A stretch of DNA of 64,000 nucleotides from a virus, in IMG/VR virus record IMGVR_UViG_2513237085_000001, positions 1,496 through 65,495 of that record. One strand, given 5' to 3'. The translations under genes and the position numbers were made by a program. The notes beneath the pieces were generated by a model. The model made no database searches. It was given only the letters and a program-made list of their open reading frames with translations, and was not told the origin of the DNA. Shown here piece after piece: positions 24,919 through 33,981 of this stretch (its first letter is position 1; each line of letters starts with the position of its first letter).

Positions 24919-26031
24919 TCAGACCCCCAGAAGCTGGGAAATCCCGGCGGGCTGGCGGATGATTGCGCCCCAGGTGCCGGAGGTCATCTTCTTCTTCCAC
25001 GAGGACAGCGCCCGAACGATGGGGTGCGAGCGCAGCTTCTCATTGAAGGAGCAATAACCGACGTCCTGGCCGTCGATGCTGTCGACGATGAGCTGGACGA
25101 GGTTGCCGCCGGCGATACCGACAGGGTTCGTCGCGCTCTGCGCACCGTACTGGACTGCGGAGATCACGCTGAGGTTCGGGAAGTTCTTCTTGAGGAGATC
25201 TTCCACGTTGACGCCGAAGGAGTTCGTCGCGGTCATGGCGACGAGGGATTCCGGCGACAGGGCCAACGTCATCTTGGCATTCTGGTCGATCTGGCCCGGC
25301 TGCTGGGAGATACCCGCCGTCTGGCTGATGATCTTGATCCAGAGAGCCTGGATATCGGCGAAGATCTCGTTCGCCGTGGCGACGATCTGGCCGTTGTTCG
25401 TCCATTTCACGCCACCGTATGCCTTAGTGGCCGGGGTGAGCGGGGCCGAGAGGTTCGGATCGTTCAGGAGACCGTAGTTCTGCAGGCCCTGGACGCCGTA
25501 GAAGTAGGTCTGGTTCAGGAAACGGTTGAGCACGGTGAGACCGGAGGCATCGACTTCACTGACCCAGTTGACACGGCCAAGGCCAGCCCGCTCGACTTCC
25601 AGCTCACCGTATTCGGAGATGGTCTGGAAGAGATAGGACTGGCGCTGCGGCCAGTTCATGTTGGCGCCGGCATGGCCGTTTTCGTTGTAGTCGCCATAGG
25701 ACGACACTTCGCCGGTCGACTCGATGACCGGGAACATTGCCGTCTGATCGACCCAGGAGCCCTTGCGGGTTTCACCGAAGATCTCGGCCGCACGGGTCGG
25801 CGCGAAGACGACGCGATAGACGTCGGGATCGATGAGGGTGGTGAGGAACGCCGGAATACCGGTGTTCGCCGTTGTTGAAAGCGCCGGCTGGGCGTCCATG
25901 GCCATGTAGTTGACCTTGGCGTCAGTCCAGGCATAGGCCTTGACGTCGGGGAGGTAGATGCCGCGCTCCTCGAACATGGGGCGATCTGCATTCCAGGCAG
26001 CGGCAGCCTGATGATAGTCATGAAAGTCCAT
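24919..26031 (-). CDS. Major capsid protein, DUF2184 family
   Basis: Start MDFHDY after GGAGA RBS; AMDAQP, FGETRKGSW, GEVSSYGDY, RQSYLFQT, NYGLLNDPNL, KMTSGTWGAIIRQP. Confidence 0.93.
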   Translation of the reverse strand: MDFHDYHQAAAAWNADRPMFEERGIYLPDVKAYAWTDAKVNYMAMDAQPALSTTANTGIPAFLTTLIDPDVYRVVFAPTRAAEIFGETRKGSWVDQTAMFPVIESTGEVSSYGDYNENGHAGANMNWPQRQSYLFQTISEYGELEVERAGLGRVNWVSEVDASGLTVLNRFLNQTYFYGVQGLQNYGLLNDPNLSAPLTPATKAYGGVKWTNNGQIVATANEIFADIQALWIKIISQTAGISQQPGQIDQNAKMTLALSPESLVAMTATNSFGVNVEDLLKKNFPNLSVISAVQYGAQSATNPVGIAGGNLVQLIVDSIDGQDVGYCSFNEKLRSHPIVRALSSWKKKMTSGTWGAIIRQPAGISQLLGV

Positions 26032-26107: not shown

Positions 26108-27052
26108 TCAGCCCTGTGCGCGAGAGCTCATCTTGACGAGTTCGCCGGGAAGACCGGACGAGCGGCAGAACCACTTGGTTTCGACCCCAGTGGCGCCCGT
26201 GATCGCAGTGGATGCGACGACGGTGTTGTTGTTGACGATGTACGTGCCAGCGCCACCGGTGCCGGTGCCGAGGGCAGTGATCGCAGTCCCAGCAACGACG
26301 TTGGTGCCGCTGAGGGTCTGGCCGACGCCGAACGTGCCGGCAACGGTGCCGCCGACGGTCAGAATGCCGTAGGTGCCGCTGATGGCGGTGGAGGCGACCG
26401 TCTGTTCCGGGATGGAGACAGAATAGGTACCGATGCCACCGGCCGTGCCCGACAACTGGCTGACGATCTGCGTACCGGTTGCAACACCGGTGCCGGAGAT
26501 GGTCGTGCCGGGATAGACGGTACCGGAGCCGACCGCGGTGACGGTCAGGACGTTGCCAGCAATCGAACCGGTGACGGACGATGTGCCGGCTGCGATCGAC
26601 GAAGCCGAACCGGAGGCCGTGCCAGCAGCGCTGCCGGCGGCGGCGAACGAGATCTTGCCATCGGCGAAGGCGACGAACGCCTTCATGCCGGGGACAGCCT
26701 GGGTGGAACCATTGTTCTTGACCCAGAAGTCACCGGCGTCGAACAGGGTGATCGGGAAGCCCGCGGGAACGAGCATCGTCGATTCCTGCAGATAAGTCAG
26801 GATCAGGCCCTGCTGTTCGCGGTGCACGAAGCCCGTCGGAGCGCCGGAACCGAAGCTGTTGACCACCGCAGGAGCGCCGTCAGCATCGATATAGCTGGAC
26901 GATGCCCATGCGAAGCGGCCGACAATGACGCCGGCAGCGCCGCAGACGAGACCGCCAGGACCGGCTAGGACCGTGGCGCGCGGATTGGTGCTGGCGAAGT
27001 CACCCTCCACCGCGGGAGCGGGCTGGTAGCCCACCTGTGTCTGGAAGCCCAT
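26108..27052 (-). CDS. Head decoration/cement protein with tandem inserted beta modules
   Basis: Start MGFQTQV; PAVEGDFASTNP, GFVHREQQGLI, GDFWVKN, ETKWF; upstream of the capsid gene. Confidence 0.85.
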   Translation of the reverse strand: MGFQTQVGYQPAPAVEGDFASTNPRATVLAGPGGLVCGAAGVIVGRFAWASSSYIDADGAPAVVNSFGSGAPTGFVHREQQGLILTYLQESTMLVPAGFPITLFDAGDFWVKNNGSTQAVPGMKAFVAFADGKISFAAAGSAAGTASGSASSIAAGTSSVTGSIAGNVLTVTAVGSGTVYPGTTISGTGVATGTQIVSQLSGTAGGIGTYSVSIPEQTVASTAISGTYGILTVGGTVAGTFGVGQTLSGTNVVAGTAITALGTGTGGAGTYIVNNNTVVASTAITGATGVETKWFCRSSGLPGELVKMSSRAQG

Positions 27053-27068
27053 AGGGATTCTCCTCAAT

Positions 27069-27120: not shown

Positions 27121-29109
27121 TTAGAGCGTCTTGACCTGGTGGGACTTCGCTTCCGGATACCGGTCGAAGAACGAGGTGACGGCCTTGGCGTCCATGGTGA
27201 CGCTGGACTGCCGAACCGGATTGGCGCCGGGGAGCGGCTGCGTCTTCAGGATCGCCTTGAAGGCCGAGGGGTGAACGCCGGTGACATCGATGTTCAGGCA
27301 CTTGAGGGCGGCGCCATAGACGTCGGCGGCGCTGTCACATGCGATCGAGATCGACCCGACGTAGGGACGGACGTCTTCCTTGGCGGTATCGATCTCGCGA
27401 CCGATCTTGCGCTCATTGGCGACGGCGGCCCTGATCGCCGCATCCATGGCACCCTTGCTGACCATGTCCTTCTTCTCCTCGTCTTCGGCTTCGCGCTTCT
27501 TGCGCTCGTCCTCGTCATCATCATCGTCGTTGTCTTCGTCCATGGCCGACTGGCCACTCATGAGGGCCTGGCATTCGGCCATTTCCTCATCGGAGAGCTT
27601 GGACTTCAGGATTTCCATGAGGCAGGCTGTGGGGTCTGCATCGACACCTGTCTTGCCAGCAGCTGGCGTGCCGCTGTTCGGATCCATGTCGTCTTCGGCC
27701 GCCTCGACGGTCTTCAGCGTGTCGAGGAGATCGATCACGTCCTCGATGTCGGCGTCCTGGGCGAGCTTGCCGGTGACGGCCTTCTTCAGATCGGCCGCGA
27801 TGGTGGCCGGAACGTAATTCTTCGCCGTGACGTCCTTGAGGACCGCCGCAACGTCGATCTTCGCGTCCTGGGCGATTTTCGGACGCAGGTATGCGAGGAT
27901 TGCGCCATGGGCAACCGAGGCCTTGCGCGATAGGACAATGGACTTCGATGCCATGTCGTTGGTCTCCTGTGAGTGGATTGCTTCATCGCCGACAACAACG
28001 TCTGGCCCGGCGCGGCCTTCCTTCACGAGGGCAACATGGTTTCCCTCGATATTTCGCATCACCCCGTCGTAGGCTTCGCCATTGGCTCGACCCGGGGTCA
28101 TGTCTGCGTCGTACCGATAGCCGCAGGAGATTTCCTTCTGCTCATTGGCTTCGATCAGCTTGATGGCTTCGCCGTCCCAGATGTTGAGCGGCGCTTTCAG
28201 GTAAGGAGCCTTGAATTCGACACTGCTGCCGATCGAGCCGACCACCACCTCACGCGGGTGATCGCTGGAATTGATCGGCTTGTGGATGAGCATCAGCGGC
28301 TTGCCCGCGAAGCTCTGGGCTGCTTTGGCCAGTTCCTTCGGATCACGGTAGAGATGATAGACCCGCTCGCCATCGAGCCCGAGGGCCTGGTAGTTCGGGA
28401 TCTCCTTGCCGTAATAGGGGCAGATGTTCGCCTTGCTGATCGGCGTTGTCTCGACAAACATGTGACCGTCGGCGTCAATCCTGCGAACCGTGTCCCGGTC
28501 CATGGCGATCGAATCCATCGCCGAAGCGGTCTCGTCTTCCTCGGAGCTGAGCCAGTTGACCAGGCCGATCTTGAACATCGCCCAGTCTTCCGGTGTTTCG
28601 AGGCCTTCAATGCCAAGCCGATCCTTGATCGTGCTTTCCACCGCCGGATGAAGCGGACCCGGCAGTTGATTGAACGGCGACCAGGCATAGCCGCTGTGCT
28701 CTTCGTTGAGCGTCGGGACGAACTTCTCCGGGACCGGCTGGGCGAAGGTGTGAAACGCCATCTTGTTCGGCGTCACCCGGCTGTCGATCAGCTTCGGCCG
28801 AGAGGCGCTTTCCGGGACAGAGCCCATCTCCTCGGTCGCCTCGCGATCGGCGGTCTGTTCAGGCGTCTCGCCTTCTTCGCCCTTGCCACCTGGAAGCGCC
28901 CAGTGGCCGGCGTAGTTCTTTTCCGTCGACGAGCGCCGCAGGAGCAGCACATCACCGTCGGGAGCAATGTAAAGCGTTCCAGCTGCGTGGCCCGCCGTCG
29001 CATCCGAGGCGACGAACTCCTCGCCTACCTTCTTCGGGATACCGAGCGTGCTCTTGCCTTCTGCCGCTGCAAACATCGCGCGCCTCTGGGCCTCACTTGT
29101 CGCCGGCAT
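27121..29109 (-). CDS. Nudix hydrolase - DUF2213 (prohead protease/scaffold) fusion
   Basis: Exact Nudix box GGKGEEGETPEQTADREATEEMG; DUF2213 motifs TPISKANICPYYG, SFAGKPL, EISCGY, NHVALVKEGRAGPDV. Confidence 0.9.
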   Translation of the reverse strand: MPATSEAQRRAMFAAAEGKSTLGIPKKVGEEFVASDATAGHAAGTLYIAPDGDVLLLRRSSTEKNYAGHWALPGGKGEEGETPEQTADREATEEMGSVPESASRPKLIDSRVTPNKMAFHTFAQPVPEKFVPTLNEEHSGYAWSPFNQLPGPLHPAVESTIKDRLGIEGLETPEDWAMFKIGLVNWLSSEEDETASAMDSIAMDRDTVRRIDADGHMFVETTPISKANICPYYGKEIPNYQALGLDGERVYHLYRDPKELAKAAQSFAGKPLMLIHKPINSSDHPREVVVGSIGSSVEFKAPYLKAPLNIWDGEAIKLIEANEQKEISCGYRYDADMTPGRANGEAYDGVMRNIEGNHVALVKEGRAGPDVVVGDEAIHSQETNDMASKSIVLSRKASVAHGAILAYLRPKIAQDAKIDVAAVLKDVTAKNYVPATIAADLKKAVTGKLAQDADIEDVIDLLDTLKTVEAAEDDMDPNSGTPAAGKTGVDADPTACLMEILKSKLSDEEMAECQALMSGQSAMDEDNDDDDDEDERKKREAEDEEKKDMVSKGAMDAAIRAAVANERKIGREIDTAKEDVRPYVGSISIACDSAADVYGAALKCLNIDVTGVHPSAFKAILKTQPLPGANPVRQSSVTMDAKAVTSFFDRYPEAKSHQVKTL

Positions 29110-29533
29110 CGTTCAAATCCATCTCGTAGACGATGGCGACTGGTCGACGACCCAGCTTGGTCATCACAGCCTGCATGTCGTTGTTGTTGAAAGCGGTAGA
29201 GCCGGTAATGCGGACCACGTTCTTCTCGGCCGCGATCTCTTTGAGCTTGCCGATCAGTTGCCGATAGATGCCTTTGCGCCGATGTTCAGGATCTACCCAT
29301 CCGGTGTAGATGAATATCGACTGGTTATATTCGAGGGTGTCGTAGCTGATGATCCCGACTATTTTCCCTTGGATGCGGGCAACTACTGCCGCATGCGAAT
29401 AATGGACGCCATCAGCGCTATGGAATGATGAAAACCCTACATCTGGGAGAGCGAGCCGAACTTCGTATAGCTTTCGAACGATCTCACCGTGTCCGCCGAT
29501 CTTGGCAAACGTCTCGATAGCGACATCAGTCAT
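29093..29533 (-). CDS. GNAT-family N-acetyltransferase
   Basis: Acetyl-CoA motif A WVDPEHRRKGIYRQL; IVGII strand; C-terminal NNNDMQAVMTKLG. Confidence 0.85.
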   Translation of the reverse strand: MTDVAIETFAKIGGHGEIVRKLYEVRLALPDVGFSSFHSADGVHYSHAAVVARIQGKIVGIISYDTLEYNQSIFIYTGWVDPEHRRKGIYRQLIGKLKEIAAEKNVVRITGSTAFNNNDMQAVMTKLGRRPVAIVYEMDLNDAGDK

Positions 29534-29994: not shown

Positions 29995-30816
29995 TCAGCT
30001 AAAGCCCTTGATGACAGGGCGGCCTACGCATCTGCAGTGGATGAGTTCGCCCGGCTGGATTTTCTGTCCAACCGCGGGATCGAACCATCCCTCGCTGATG
30101 GTGTAGCGCGTCTTCTCTCGACCGGCCTTCAGATGCGACGGCCTCGACTCTCGTCCGCCACCGCTATGCACCCACACCGCCTCGGTCAATCCGAGCTCGA
30201 CCTGGCGGGCTCTGTTGAAGGCGGCGGTGGCCTTATTGTTCTGGTCCTTGCTGATCAGGGCCGCGCGGCGCCGTGTGACGCCAAGCCGCTCCTGCAGATC
30301 CTTCGACACCTGCCCGAGATCGCGCCCGCTCTGGACGCCTCTCATGACGATCCCTTCTACCTGCTCCAGGTATTGGGCCGGGATGGATTTGATCAGCGCC
30401 ACGTTCTGGTGAACCGTCGCATCCATTATGTCCCGCATGGCCGGAGTGATCTGGAAGCTGACGGTCCAGCCGCCATCCTTCAGGATCTTCTTCATCACCG
30501 CCGTCGACCGCGTCTCGACCGATTGAGCGAAATACTCCGCCATCTTGGTCGACATGCTATCGAAGCGCTTCAGCCAGCGGGACGAGAGCTCCTTCATCGA
30601 GCGGCGCAGCGCATCGGCCGGCGTCTCGTCCTGGGCTATCCTCGGCTCGTTCTGGCGATAGGTAGCGGTCAGCCAGTAGACGACGCTGTCGTGCATGTCC
30701 TGGATGAGCGCATCGAGACGGCGCTGGTATTCAGCGGCTATTCCCGCATTCGGGTGAACGGGCCTCAGGATCGTTTCCGTGGCCTTCGGCGTCTTCCGCC
30801 TCAACTTGCTCGCCAA
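29995..30816 (-). CDS. MuF / SPP1 gp7-like head morphogenesis protein
   Basis: QNVALIKSIP, RRRAALISKDQNNKA, WVHSGGG...RPSH, QPGELIHCRC. Confidence 0.92.
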   Translation of the reverse strand: MASKLRRKTPKATETILRPVHPNAGIAAEYQRRLDALIQDMHDSVVYWLTATYRQNEPRIAQDETPADALRRSMKELSSRWLKRFDSMSTKMAEYFAQSVETRSTAVMKKILKDGGWTVSFQITPAMRDIMDATVHQNVALIKSIPAQYLEQVEGIVMRGVQSGRDLGQVSKDLQERLGVTRRRAALISKDQNNKATAAFNRARQVELGLTEAVWVHSGGGRESRPSHLKAGREKTRYTISEGWFDPAVGQKIQPGELIHCRCVGRPVIKGFS

Positions 30817-30906: not shown

Positions 30907-32520
30907 TCACGCTGCTTCAGCTTTCCCGAAAAGGCGATTGGAGGCACTGTCGTCTTTATCCTCTTCGCCAATCCCGGGCAATGGGTGGCCGCCCTTCGGG
31001 GCTAGGCCATTCTCTTCCTCGTCCAGCAGATCCGGCACTTCCTCGACGTCGATCGAGGCATAATCCGAGCCTGGATCGTTCGCCACGCGCTTGCGGGATT
31101 CGTCCGGCGACAGCACGCCGGTATCGATCAGGATCTGATCTGTCTCGGCCTTCAGCTTCTCAACCTCGGCTTCGCTCTTTTCGTCGAGCGAGAACAGCGG
31201 CTTGAACTTGAAATCGATGGCCGGATCGACCTCGCCCCAGAGCGAAATCATGATCAGGCCCATCAGGCGCCGGATCGGATGGCGATACAGGTGCTCCTGA
31301 TAGGCATGGATGTAATCGTAGAACACCCGCATCTGATCTTCGCTCGAGGCGTTCAGGCCCGCCGGCTGGATGCCCAGCAGCTTGACCGTCGGGATATGCG
31401 AGACAGAGGCCATGTGCTCCTGTGCCTGGGCTTGCAGCTCAGACAGACCGGAGAGAGACACCGAGACGTTCTGAAACTCCTCGCTGTCCTTGTCGATGAT
31501 CATCAGCCCGCGGTTATCCCGCAGGTTATTGAAGAGCTCGGCACGCTTGAACAGCTGCTGCCCGTCGGCCTGCAAGGACTCCCCGAGGTTGGTGCTGAGC
31601 ACGAAAACCGAGAAGGCCGAAATGATGTCGTTGACCGACTGCCGCGTCTGCAGCCAGTTGTCCACGTAGGGCTTTGCCATCTGGGACAGCGACAGGCCGC
31701 CGAAGGAATAGGTCGGCTTGAGCAGATCCGGGACTTCCCGGCCGATCAAGGTGATGAGCCGCGACGAGTTGACGATCTTTGCCTGCACATACCAGCTGCC
31801 CGGCCGGTACCAGTCGGCTTTCAGCGGGTCGTTCGAGTTGTAGCTCGTCGGATAGCACCACACGGCCTCGACGGTGCGCAGCGCTTCGATCTTCTTCTTG
31901 CTCAGCTTGGTCTTGCTGATTGCGTCCCAGCCATCGCCGATCGGCAACTGCAATTCGGCGGGATTGTCGGTATCCCCTGTGTCGATATAGATATGGCCGC
32001 GACCGAAGAAACCATCCTGTTCCGTGGCTCTGGCGAACATGCCGGCCACGTCGAGGCGCTTGAACTCTTCTTCCAGTTCATTGATCCGATCGGCCTTCTC
32101 ATCGTCATCGTCGGCGCTGGATGTGAACTCGATCCACTCCCGCGTCATTTCCGTCGCGATGGTTTCCGAGATCACCCGATATTCGGGGCGCTGCGCCAAC
32201 TCCGACAGATAGGCATAGCCGAGGAAGGTGATGCCCTCGGTCCAGAAACCGTCGGCGGCGAATCCATTGGCCCATGCGTTGGTCCCGGCAAGAGATGAAT
32301 CCATCGCCATGCCGCTGTCGCCCTCAGGCAGCACACCGGGAGGCGGAGACGGCATCGAGAACACCGGGACACGGACGTACGAATCCGGATTGATCCTGGA
32401 CGACATCAGCGCGCCGTCAGGCACCTTGATGGGTTTTGGCTTGTCAGCCACCGGCGGAGCTTGGACCGCAGTCTCCTGCGTCTTCTGCCGGCGGAGGCCA
32501 AACCAATCGCGAATACCCAT
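30907..32520 (-). CDS. Portal protein, DUF1073 (anti-CBASS Acb1-associated portal-like) family
   Basis: FLGYAYLSELAQRPEYR, FFGRG, YSFGGLSLSQ, LSGLSELQAQ, IPTVKLLGIQPAGLNAS; directly after terL. Confidence 0.9.
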   Translation of the reverse strand: MGIRDWFGLRRQKTQETAVQAPPVADKPKPIKVPDGALMSSRINPDSYVRVPVFSMPSPPPGVLPEGDSGMAMDSSLAGTNAWANGFAADGFWTEGITFLGYAYLSELAQRPEYRVISETIATEMTREWIEFTSSADDDDEKADRINELEEEFKRLDVAGMFARATEQDGFFGRGHIYIDTGDTDNPAELQLPIGDGWDAISKTKLSKKKIEALRTVEAVWCYPTSYNSNDPLKADWYRPGSWYVQAKIVNSSRLITLIGREVPDLLKPTYSFGGLSLSQMAKPYVDNWLQTRQSVNDIISAFSVFVLSTNLGESLQADGQQLFKRAELFNNLRDNRGLMIIDKDSEEFQNVSVSLSGLSELQAQAQEHMASVSHIPTVKLLGIQPAGLNASSEDQMRVFYDYIHAYQEHLYRHPIRRLMGLIMISLWGEVDPAIDFKFKPLFSLDEKSEAEVEKLKAETDQILIDTGVLSPDESRKRVANDPGSDYASIDVEEVPDLLDEEENGLAPKGGHPLPGIGEEDKDDSASNRLFGKAEAA

Positions 32521-32523
32521 AAA

Positions 32524-33981
32524 TTACCTCATTCCCGATCGCTGGAGCACAGCATCGCTGATGACCATGACGCGAGAGAGTTGAACGTTGTCGGCAGCGA
32601 TCACGGCGTCCGCCAGGTTATGCGACTTCACTCCCAGGTCTTTTTTCAGTTTCACCTTGGGAACGACCCGCTTCTTGCCTTCGCTCTCCACCCACCACGG
32701 TACACATAGCTCGGTGAATAGAGCATCGAGCTTTGCGGCCCCGATCCCAGACGAGAACGAAAGAACATCCTCAGCCCTGATAGGTTGGCCCCTGGTGACG
32801 GCATTGAACGTCAGCATCGCCCGTCGTGCAGTATTCGCCCAGGCCTGCGCCTTGCGGTTCAGGTATTCGTCCTTATTCAGCGGGCTTTTGCTGTTGTAAG
32901 GGTCGCTAGCCTTGTCCGGTTCGAGAACAGCTCCGCCGGCATGAAAGGCGTAGTGGTTAACCCGGGCCCGGTTTTCCTTGTTCTGCTCGTCGATATATCC
33001 ACCAACGAATGCGCCGACGCCGATCGTATCGTACGACACAGTTGCGCCAATGGCCTTCGCCTTGGCCCACACCTTTTTGGCGTTCTGAACGAGCTCATCC
33101 TTGCCAGACGACCAATCATCGACCTCGGCGAAGATGCCGCCGACCTTGTCGGCCGTCGCGCATTTGTCCTCGCCATCGTCGGCAGGGTCGAACCCGATAA
33201 TATTCCGCCCGGTCAGGCTGATATTCAGCGTCACATGAGCGTCTATGCAGGCATCGAGCCAGCGGCGCTTGAAGATCGAAAGCTCGCTGTCGCCGAGTGG
33301 TATGCCACCATAGACGTGTTCGAACGTCTCCGGGTTGCGCTCCCGCATCGCGGCGATATCACGCAACGCTTTCTGCGAGAGGAATGGATTCTCGGTGTAA
33401 TCGATCTTCCGAACCACGCAGTGCGGCGGCACGTTGATGACGAAGTTCTTCCAGACGTAATCAGTTACGAGCTTCGGATTGAAGAGCAGGATCGCGAGGC
33501 TGTCTTCCTTGCGGATCGTCGGCCCGATGACCGTCCACTGATCCTCGGTCAGCTTCTCCGCTTCTTCGACCCAGAGGATATCGACGTCGGACGTGCCCTT
33601 GATGTCTTCTAAATTTCGCTCAATGCCGTAGAAGATGAATTCCGACCCCGTCACCTTGTGGATGATGGTGGTCTTCTGAACGTCGTACTGGTCGCCGAGA
33701 CCGAGATGAGCGATCGCCCATTTCAGTTCCGTGTAGACCGAATCCTGAATGCGGTTCTGGAAGCGACGGATGCAAAGTACCCGCATCCTGACGCCGACAT
33801 GGTTGACCAACCGAACCAACTGGCAGGCCGTGTCTCGCGTCTTTGAGCTGGAGCGACCGCCGTGAAGGACCGCGATGTCCGCCTGCCCGAGGAAAACCTG
33901 CTCCCAAAAATCATGAAGGGCGGGGTTGGTGAGATATGTGGTGGCGTCTAGCTCTTCTCGCTGCGCAGCACTTCCCGCCAT
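32524..33981 (-). CDS. terL: Terminase large subunit (PBSX-type)
   Basis: Walker A LHGGRSSSKT, Walker B ILWVEEAE, nuclease GFDPAD and SHNLADA. Confidence 0.95.
   Translation of the reverse strand: MAGSAAQREELDATTYLTNPALHDFWEQVFLGQADIAVLHGGRSSSKTRDTACQLVRLVNHVGVRMRVLCIRRFQNRIQDSVYTELKWAIAHLGLGDQYDVQKTTIIHKVTGSEFIFYGIERNLEDIKGTSDVDILWVEEAEKLTEDQWTVIGPTIRKEDSLAILLFNPKLVTDYVWKNFVINVPPHCVVRKIDYTENPFLSQKALRDIAAMRERNPETFEHVYGGIPLGDSELSIFKRRWLDACIDAHVTLNISLTGRNIIGFDPADDGEDKCATADKVGGIFAEVDDWSSGKDELVQNAKKVWAKAKAIGATVSYDTIGVGAFVGGYIDEQNKENRARVNHYAFHAGGAVLEPDKASDPYNSKSPLNKDEYLNRKAQAWANTARRAMLTFNAVTRGQPIRAEDVLSFSSGIGAAKLDALFTELCVPWWVESEGKKRVVPKVKLKKDLGVKSHNLADAVIAADNVQLSRVMVISDAVLQRSGMR

Follow-up and report, generated by a model that had tools for sequence, protein, structure and literature searches.

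Architecture of the fusion protein

We analyzed a 64,000-nucleotide stretch of viral DNA (hereafter the window, meaning this whole stretch; positions 1,496 to 65,495 of IMG/VR record IMGVR_UViG_2513237085_000001), which covers most of a provirus of 68,880 bases rated complete. The gene of interest is an uninterrupted open reading frame (ORF) on the minus strand that encodes 662 amino acids plus a stop and joins a Nudix hydrolase domain to a DUF2213 head-maturation protease and a scaffold part. Its nearest protein relatives come from Rhizobium and Mesorhizobium. A family alignment of 80 sequences, an AlphaFold2 (AF2) model of the full fusion with a mean predicted local distance difference test score (pLDDT) of 84, and profile searches delimited the following features.

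27121-29109, minus strand: Nudix-protease-scaffold fusion ORF, comprising the N-terminal motif, Nudix domain, linker, DUF2213 and scaffold
29002-29109, minus strand: N-terminal motif (residues 1-36), from conservation and an AF2 helix-loop-helix
28615-28989, minus strand: Nudix fold (residues 41-165), from PF00293, AF2 (pLDDT >90) and Foldseek
28819-28887, minus strand: Nudix box (residues 75-97), G75-x5-E81-x7-R89-E90-A-x-E93-E94-x-G96-S97
28498-28614, minus strand: linker (residues 166-204), helix at 173-188, disordered at 192-200 (AF2 pLDDT <50)
27982-28497, minus strand: DUF2213 head-maturation protease (residues 205-376), from Pfam, fold and invariant residues
28282-28284, minus strand: invariant H276
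28126-28128, minus strand: invariant S328
28036-28038, minus strand: invariant H358
27952-27968, minus strand: probable internal translation start (AGGAG at 27964-27968, 9-nucleotide spacer, ATG of M386 at 27952-27954)
27121-27954, minus strand: scaffold part (residues 386-662), helical, with phrog_2229 reaching residue 656

Pfam searches placed NUDIX (PF00293) at residues 42-156 (E = 1.7e-17; 64.1 bits against a cutoff of 21.1) and DUF2213 (PF09979) at residues 209-376 (E = 5e-50; 170 bits against a cutoff of 22). The phrog_2229 profile matched residues 197-656 (1.4e-123), and phrog_3778, a profile that itself spans Nudix, protease and scaffold, matched residues 65-651. A preceding analysis of the letters and translated ORFs (the sequence-only reading) had described a Nudix domain N-terminal to DUF2213 in one ORF, with an intact box at about 28820-28890 and a small domain beginning MPATSEAQRRAM... 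ahead of it. The Pfam matches within the uninterrupted 662-residue frame bear out this order, the box maps to 28819-28887, and the small domain is conserved and forms the beginning of many homologues.

To place the Nudix domain among its relatives, residues 1-200 were searched against 1.84 billion cluster representatives (clusters at 50% identity), which returned a clade that comprises 145 clusters at a threshold of E ≤ 1e-30 and 1100 when this is relaxed to E ≤ 1e-10. In 121 of the best 150 representatives, the protease lies downstream in the same chain; one is a portal-Nudix protein and the rest are short or have other or unrecognized partners. Both Pfam domains also occur in 119 of the 120 best database homologues. 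Because so many homologues and representatives share the architecture, the fusion is no assembly or reading artefact; it is a genuine, well-formed example of an architecture that is known and common. Its distribution, which the sequence-only reading had listed as a point to check, extends over alpha- and betaproteobacterial prophages and isolated phages.

The Nudix domain and its possible substrates

The Nudix box follows GX5EX7REUXEEXGU, with A91 and S97 at the two U positions. Of 121 homologues, 109 match a strict form of the box and 120 a loose form. Across 80 relatives, E81, R89, E90, E93 and E94 as well as E137, H154 and P155 are invariant; judged by this invariance, selection probably keeps the domain as an active enzyme.

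When the whole model was submitted to Foldseek, all top matches were Nudix enzymes (E-values of 5.6e-8 and weaker). The best PDB and NCBIfam matches of the domain were MutT, NudG, NudI and BdRppH, and the nearest sequences and structures overall were small enzymes of the MutT, NudG, NudI, NUDT15, RppH and Ap-n-A types, with no ADP-ribose pyrophosphatases among the top sequence or structure matches. The H-W-x-L-P-G-G-K context likewise resembles that of the MutT/NudG/RppH group. These affinities do not back the substrates suggested in the sequence-only reading (ADP-ribose, nicotinamide adenine dinucleotide (NAD), diadenosine tetraphosphate (Ap4A) or (p)ppGpp-type signals) in the form given, and a specifically ADP-ribose-directed enzyme, unsupported by the nearest relatives, is the less likely reading. 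Going by these neighbors, we weakly infer a substrate of the nucleoside triphosphate (NTP), NpnN, alarmone or 5'-triphosphate-RNA type rather than ADP-ribose. A conserved T113-P114 stands about 15-17 residues past the box; a proline at this position is a mark of ADP-ribose pyrophosphatases.

Nudix domains fused to phage head proteins have been treated before. Passages of Iyer, Burroughs, Anantharaman and Aravind (2022, Viruses 14:1977; PMC9503650) assign the head-fused Nudix to the T4 NudE clade with NAD and ADP-ribose as targets. That assignment may or may not hold for the domain studied here, which falls into phrog_1198 (4.9e-21) rather than phrog_1185, to which T4 NudE belongs (4.7e-74), and has MutT/NudG/NudI/RppH-like proteins as its nearest solved relatives. 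Reciprocal matches between the two were weak (~1e-7), and a pairwise BLASTP comparison of T4 NudE with the domain covered 58 residues around the box.

Protease, scaffold and N-terminal motif

Since Foldseek with the whole model returned Nudix matches only, the protease domain was folded alone (pLDDT 92). VIA-align related this model to T4 gp21 (5jbl; Z 10.4, root-mean-square deviation 3.0, 129 aligned residues) and to the varicella-zoster virus protease 1vzv (Z 9.6), ahead of 8j3s (Z 6.9); unrelated folds scored no higher than 5.3. Foldseek listed herpesvirus proteases at ranks 1-7 and T4 gp21 eighth, at weak E-values of 1e-3 to 1e-2. On this modeling evidence, the DUF2213 domain has the fold of T4 gp21 and herpesvirus assemblin. 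H276, S328 and H358 do not vary among 61 diverse sequences, including Nudix-less relatives from distant bacteria; their order is the His-Ser-His order of assemblin, which makes them a candidate catalytic triad. The PF09979 and phrog_2229 profiles and the position of the gene, between the portal and MuF-like genes and the capsid genes, agree in assigning the protein to DUF2213/COG3566.

The scaffold part contains an acidic disordered tract at residues 520-549. M386, at its beginning, stands out in the alignment with at least 90% conservation from a linker that otherwise varies, and AGGAG precedes its ATG by 9 nucleotides; a scaffold-only product is therefore probably made from this internal start. 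The start of the full-length fusion lacks a strong ribosome-binding site and overlaps the stop of the upstream gene by 17 nucleotides. With a nested start available and its own start weak and overlapping, the full-length, Nudix-bearing chain is likely the minor product, by analogy with lambda C/Nu3 and gp26/gp25 of phage BcepB1A.

The N-terminal motif has the consensus S-x-x-Q-x-x-A-M-x-A-A-A-x-G-x-S-x-L-G-I-P-x-x-V-G-x-E-F ... D36 and is predicted to form a helix-loop-helix (helices 6-16 and 26-33, pLDDT 74-85). It occurs in at least 90 of the best 150 cluster representatives of the Nudix clade and accompanies the Nudix in solo forms as well. In nine related clusters (P0126, P0129, P0131, P0153, P0169-P0171, P0176 and P0192), it sits inside the scaffold, ~100 residues past the protease, rather than at the N terminus, which marks it as a mobile module of head polyproteins. 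A Pfam search of the motif returned zero families at E ≤ 10, and DUF3008, a suspected identity, was dropped on that result. No second copy was found in the 64-kb window. As the motif travels with solo Nudix domains and is embedded in these scaffolds, it suggests, speculatively, a procapsid-related role, perhaps in docking.

Relatives with other partners and other cargo

Members of the Nudix clade are fused to the protease in isolated phages, as in BcepB1A gp26 and gp44 of Shewanella phage vB_Sb_QDWS. In Bcep781, Bcep43 and BcepNY3, the domain is fused to the C terminus of the portal (gp17), and in Bm1 and BCSR129, it is encoded on its own, by a gene placed between those for the MuF-like protein and the protease. 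By these sequence comparisons, the clade is almost confined to head-module fusions. Many jumbo phages (121Q, PBECO4 and PA5oct-like) carry a related solo MutT/Nudix gene with 31-37% identity that adjoins a gene annotated as tail sheath or tail sheath stabilizer, a further link between a Nudix and a virion module.

The position N-terminal to the protease can hold other enzymes. Some relatives have an ADP-ribosyltransferase or a zeta-toxin kinase inserted between Nudix and protease; others have an ADP-ribosyltransferase ahead of the Nudix or a PBECR1 ribonuclease (RNase) in its place. An example of the last type is a locus from Oligella sp. (L037:6410-8104), where the PBECR1 RNase stands at the N terminus of the DUF2213 protease and replaces the Nudix. 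In a Bilophila locus (L039), DUF2213 is followed by LPD3. One relative, P0066, carries the octapeptide EHAEDSEF at residues 197 and 334, on both sides of the insert between Nudix and ADP-ribosyltransferase; the pair looks like a duplicated linker or cleavage site that arose when the extra domain was inserted.

Genomic neighborhood

In the head module, the fusion gene has the MuF-like gene on one side and the genes for the cement and major capsid proteins on the other; the module has the following members.

32524-33981, minus strand: large terminase of the head module
30907-32520, minus strand: portal protein, from Pfam
29995-30816, minus strand: MuF/SPP1 gp7-like head morphogenesis protein, from phrog_324 (positions 58-320 of 624) and TIGR01641
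29530-29889, minus strand: 119-residue ORF in the same variable slot as the GNAT gene
29093-29533, minus strand: GNAT acetyltransferase gene, from Pfam, whose stop overlaps the fusion start by 17 nucleotides
26108-27067, minus strand: cement/minor capsid protein, from PF23982 and PF22758
24919-26091, minus strand: major capsid protein, from phrog_264

Gene neighborhoods of relatives were taken from a related-loci search whose patterns included a Nudix peptide. The Nudix was fused at 54 of 162 such loci and absent from the DUF2213 protease at 104 of 162, counts that, given the Nudix peptide among the patterns, are no frequencies. The MuF-like and protease genes enclose a slot with variable cargo; at related loci, its size goes from a gene overlap up to 6.3 kb. 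Elsewhere, it holds Macro, ADP-ribosyltransferase, N6-methylase, topoisomerase IB, GNAT and HNH genes as well as ORFs of up to 1283 residues without a Pfam match. The 119-residue ORF had zero family matches in Pfam, PHROG and NCBIfam profile searches. Both occupants of the slot in the provirus were considered as conserved partners of the fusion and rejected, with look-alikes of the GNAT gene at 1 of 164 related loci and of the 119-residue ORF at 0 of 164; on these comparisons, they are variable cargo and no partners of the Nudix.

Two neighbors deserve separate mention. The C-terminal extension of MuF family members is often an effector domain. The MuF-like protein of the provirus lacks the extension found in many family members, because only positions 58-320 of the 624-position phrog_324 were matched. 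In the capsid-protein ORF, the first ~20 residues correspond to gaps in 80-90% of 126 homologues; the true start is therefore probably the second methionine, M21, at about nucleotide 26031.

A candidate processing motif

A short motif, A-x-D, recurs in the fusion and in its structural neighbors. The sites of most interest are as follows.

28513-28521, minus strand: A197-x-D199, candidate cleavage site in the linker (A197 88% and D199 96% conserved)
28498-28506, minus strand: A202-x-D204, candidate cleavage site in the linker (A202 99% and D204 100% conserved)
32299-32307, minus strand: portal A72-M-D74, preceding the conserved core
25894-25902, minus strand: capsid A64-M-D66, at the boundary of a variable N-terminal stretch and the conserved body

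The fusion has four copies of A-M-D (at 197, 202, 522 and 554) and one T-M-D (at 638), while the portal (at 72) and the capsid protein (at 64) have one A-M-D each. These six A-M-D copies compare with 0.36 expected, and none of 20,000 shuffles reached six. The capsid motif is conserved at the variable/conserved boundary across 126 related capsid proteins. The portal motif precedes the conserved core, with its A and D columns about 90% conserved among 113 portals. Within the fusion family, the conserved form is A-x-D, at 197, 202, 413, 450, 522, 554, 590 and 638, of which 197, 522 and 638 lie in segments that AF2 leaves disordered. The folded Nudix has a single conserved A-x-D, placed in a high-confidence turn (A-P-D-G). 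Relatives with multiple cargo domains carry A-x-D in every inter-domain linker, in two cases as AMDAQ identical to the capsid-protein site. By analogy with T4 gp21, for which the motif is L/I-x-Glu, we infer that the protease cuts at small-x-Asp, here A-x-D. The predicted cleavage product would be a Nudix of roughly 18 kDa, from residue 37 or 1 to residue 199.

Comparison with known systems

The closest counterpart among isolated phages is BcepB1A gp26 (head maturation protease, COG3566) from a Burkholderia phage, which has the same order of Nudix, DUF2213 and scaffold and the same gene place between MuF-like and capsid genes. As in the fusion from the provirus, a scaffold gene (gp25) is nested within it by annotation, an A-x-D pair stands ahead of the protease, and AMDAA precedes the C-terminal region of the scaffold. 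The two proteins differ in sequence (~32% identity) and in their short N-terminal motif, and BcepB1A is a virulent Burkholderia myovirus whereas the element studied here is a rhizobial prophage.

A protease-scaffold homologue without Nudix or other N-terminal cargo is the DUF2213 'scaffolding protein' of the Pbunavirus members Pa193 (gp24; E = 7.7e-12) and E217. Pa193 gp24 was detected using LC-MS (liquid chromatography-mass spectrometry) in mature virions, where its residues 286-326 bind the capsid interior under the five-fold vertices; pieces of the polyprotein can thus stay inside. Portal and capsid N termini are missing in these phages, adjacent to an AMD in the capsid protein: in E217, the visible part of the capsid protein begins at residue 66, two positions past its own AMD, and the first 93 residues of the Pa193 portal were seen neither in the map nor in the LC-MS data. 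The proteome of Agrobacterium phage 7-7-1 was considered and set aside, as this phage has an HK97-type protease.

In T4, internal proteins and Alt enter the prohead with the core, are trimmed by gp21 at L/I-x-E and are injected with the DNA. The fusion resembles this system in outline, in its gp21-fold protease and short x-acidic motif, with cleavage and injection being predictions here. It differs in that the cargo is covalently joined to protease and scaffold, as opposed to carrying a capsid-targeting peptide of roughly 10 residues, and in having A-x-D in place of L/I-x-E.

A further parallel comes from phage polyvalent proteins, in which assemblin-like peptidases C-terminal to effectors were proposed to process these effectors as the virion is being assembled (Iyer et al. 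2017; PMC5512222). Here too, effector domains stand N-terminal to an assemblin-like peptidase, and relatives carry ADP-ribosyltransferase, zeta-toxin kinase, PBECR1 and LPD3 domains. Unlike in polyvalent proteins, a single cargo domain is present and the peptidase is followed by the scaffold instead of the chain end.

The combination has also been noted in print. The literature found on Nudix proteins in virion proteomes or fused to maturation proteases consisted of only two Iyer/Aravind papers and PMC8770471. PMC8770471 mentions the Pfam architecture DUF2213+NUDIX in passing, and passages of Iyer et al. (2022; PMC9503650) propose probable packaging and injection for phage Nudix domains that are fused to the capsid-processing serine peptidase, to MuF or to the portal. 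As worded there, this is the same hypothesis of packaging and injection that the sequence-only reading had reached. The main-text passages of PMC9503650 retrieved by term search make no mention of a cleavage motif, the N-terminal motif or a nested scaffold.

Proposed packaging of the Nudix and alternative explanations

The loading step of the sequence-only reading, in which fusion to a head-assembly protein brings the enzyme into proheads, gains support from comparative evidence, namely, the fusion partners, the position of the domain and the exchange of cargo. From these comparisons, the Nudix is probably a head passenger, a plausible reading already published as a prediction. The following course can be envisaged. 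The full-length chain would co-assemble into the procapsid via its scaffold part, carrying tens of Nudix copies inside. During maturation, the protease would cut A-x-D sites at the capsid propeptide boundary, at the portal N terminus and at many places in the scaffold, and it would also cut the disordered linker at A197-x-D199 and A202-x-D204 and possibly at D36. This would fragment the scaffold and set free, inside the head, a folded Nudix domain of about 18 kDa. Less firmly, the enzyme may then be retained in the virion, exit together with the DNA and hydrolyze a host nucleotide pyrophosphate compound soon after the next infection begins. We put head loading and release at about an even chance; the injection and anti-defence steps of the sequence-only reading are less probable than that.

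Several points weigh against this reading. The cleavage motif is derived solely from conservation and position. The missing N termini in E217 and Pa193 could be disordered instead of cut, and A202-x-D204, which is the conserved N-terminal edge of Nudix-less proteases too, may be structural instead of a processing site. A DNA-filled head that also held tens to hundreds of 18-kDa domains would have less room for packaging. Finally, Nudix substrates are unreadable from sequence, and the clade assigned by Iyer et al. (2022) is that of T4 NudE (ADP-ribose, flavin adenine dinucleotide (FAD) and Ap3A).

A different account would have the Nudix act late, in the producing cell or procapsid, and then be degraded or expelled with the scaffold, never being delivered. 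Its task might be to clear a nucleotide signal or a toxic nucleotide that rises once head proteins appear, or to clean the pool around packaging, with the fusion serving co-expression and dosage only. The gene is indeed a late head gene, and destruction or expulsion is the usual fate of prohead proteases and scaffolds, an established outcome with T4 gp21/gp22 and HK97 gp4. Since the same Nudix also occurs in solo and in split form, covalent attachment is not obligatory. Against a purely late action, the same clade is also fused to the C terminus of the portal, a protein that remains part of the virion; the Nudix position ahead of the protease is shared by typical injected effectors (ADP-ribosyltransferase, zeta-toxin kinase and PBECR1); and the folded Nudix is without an exposed conserved A-x-D, whereas the scaffold has six or more. 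We consider this account rather unlikely, while taking it seriously.

A more specific form of the packaging proposal combines several of the features above. It holds that phages with DUF2213 proteases share a cargo grammar, consisting of the helix-loop-helix module and A-x-D sites, and that a MutT/NudG-like Nudix is delivered with the DNA against an NTP-derived immune molecule, not ADP-ribose. The targets may be chain-terminating nucleotides, alarmones or a pyrophosphate-containing signal. Taken as a whole, this combination strikes us as improbable.

The Nudix could instead be a regulatory or structural appendage of the protease, either a nucleotide sensor that times activation or scaffold mass, with no host target. 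Its constant position directly N-terminal to the protease fits such a role. Sensor Nudix domains often lose catalytic residues, and in the fusion, all catalytic residues are invariant. Nudix folds do act as ligand sensors in NrtR-type regulators, as cited in passages of PMC9503650. Most DUF2213 proteases nevertheless work without a Nudix (at 104 of 162 loci, picked with a Nudix peptide among the patterns), and unrelated enzymes can take the domain's place or the domain can sit on the portal instead, which together make the appendage role very unlikely.

A last account would treat the fusion as an accident of gene order, neutral or decaying, within a defective prophage; its residence in a provirus and the high variability of the slot between MuF-like and protease genes might suggest as much. 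This account is strongly disfavored, given that the record is rated a complete provirus, that the architecture is kept with invariant active-site residues across alpha- and betaproteobacterial prophages and isolated phages, and that no frameshifts or lost catalytic residues were seen among close relatives.

Implications

The fusion from the rhizobial provirus is a further example of an architecture that is catalogued in Pfam and phrog_3778 and has been interpreted in print. The A-x-D motif with its predicted products, the traveling N-terminal module, the nested scaffold start and the MutT-like affinities of the domain are modest additions. The A-x-D sites and the roughly 18-kDa product make packaging directly testable in cultivable relatives. 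Should the virion truly carry the Nudix, the enzyme would be a widespread counter-measure, made in advance and acting before any phage gene expression, and the identity of its substrate would indicate a nucleotide signal or toxin of the host that is important in the first minutes of infection.

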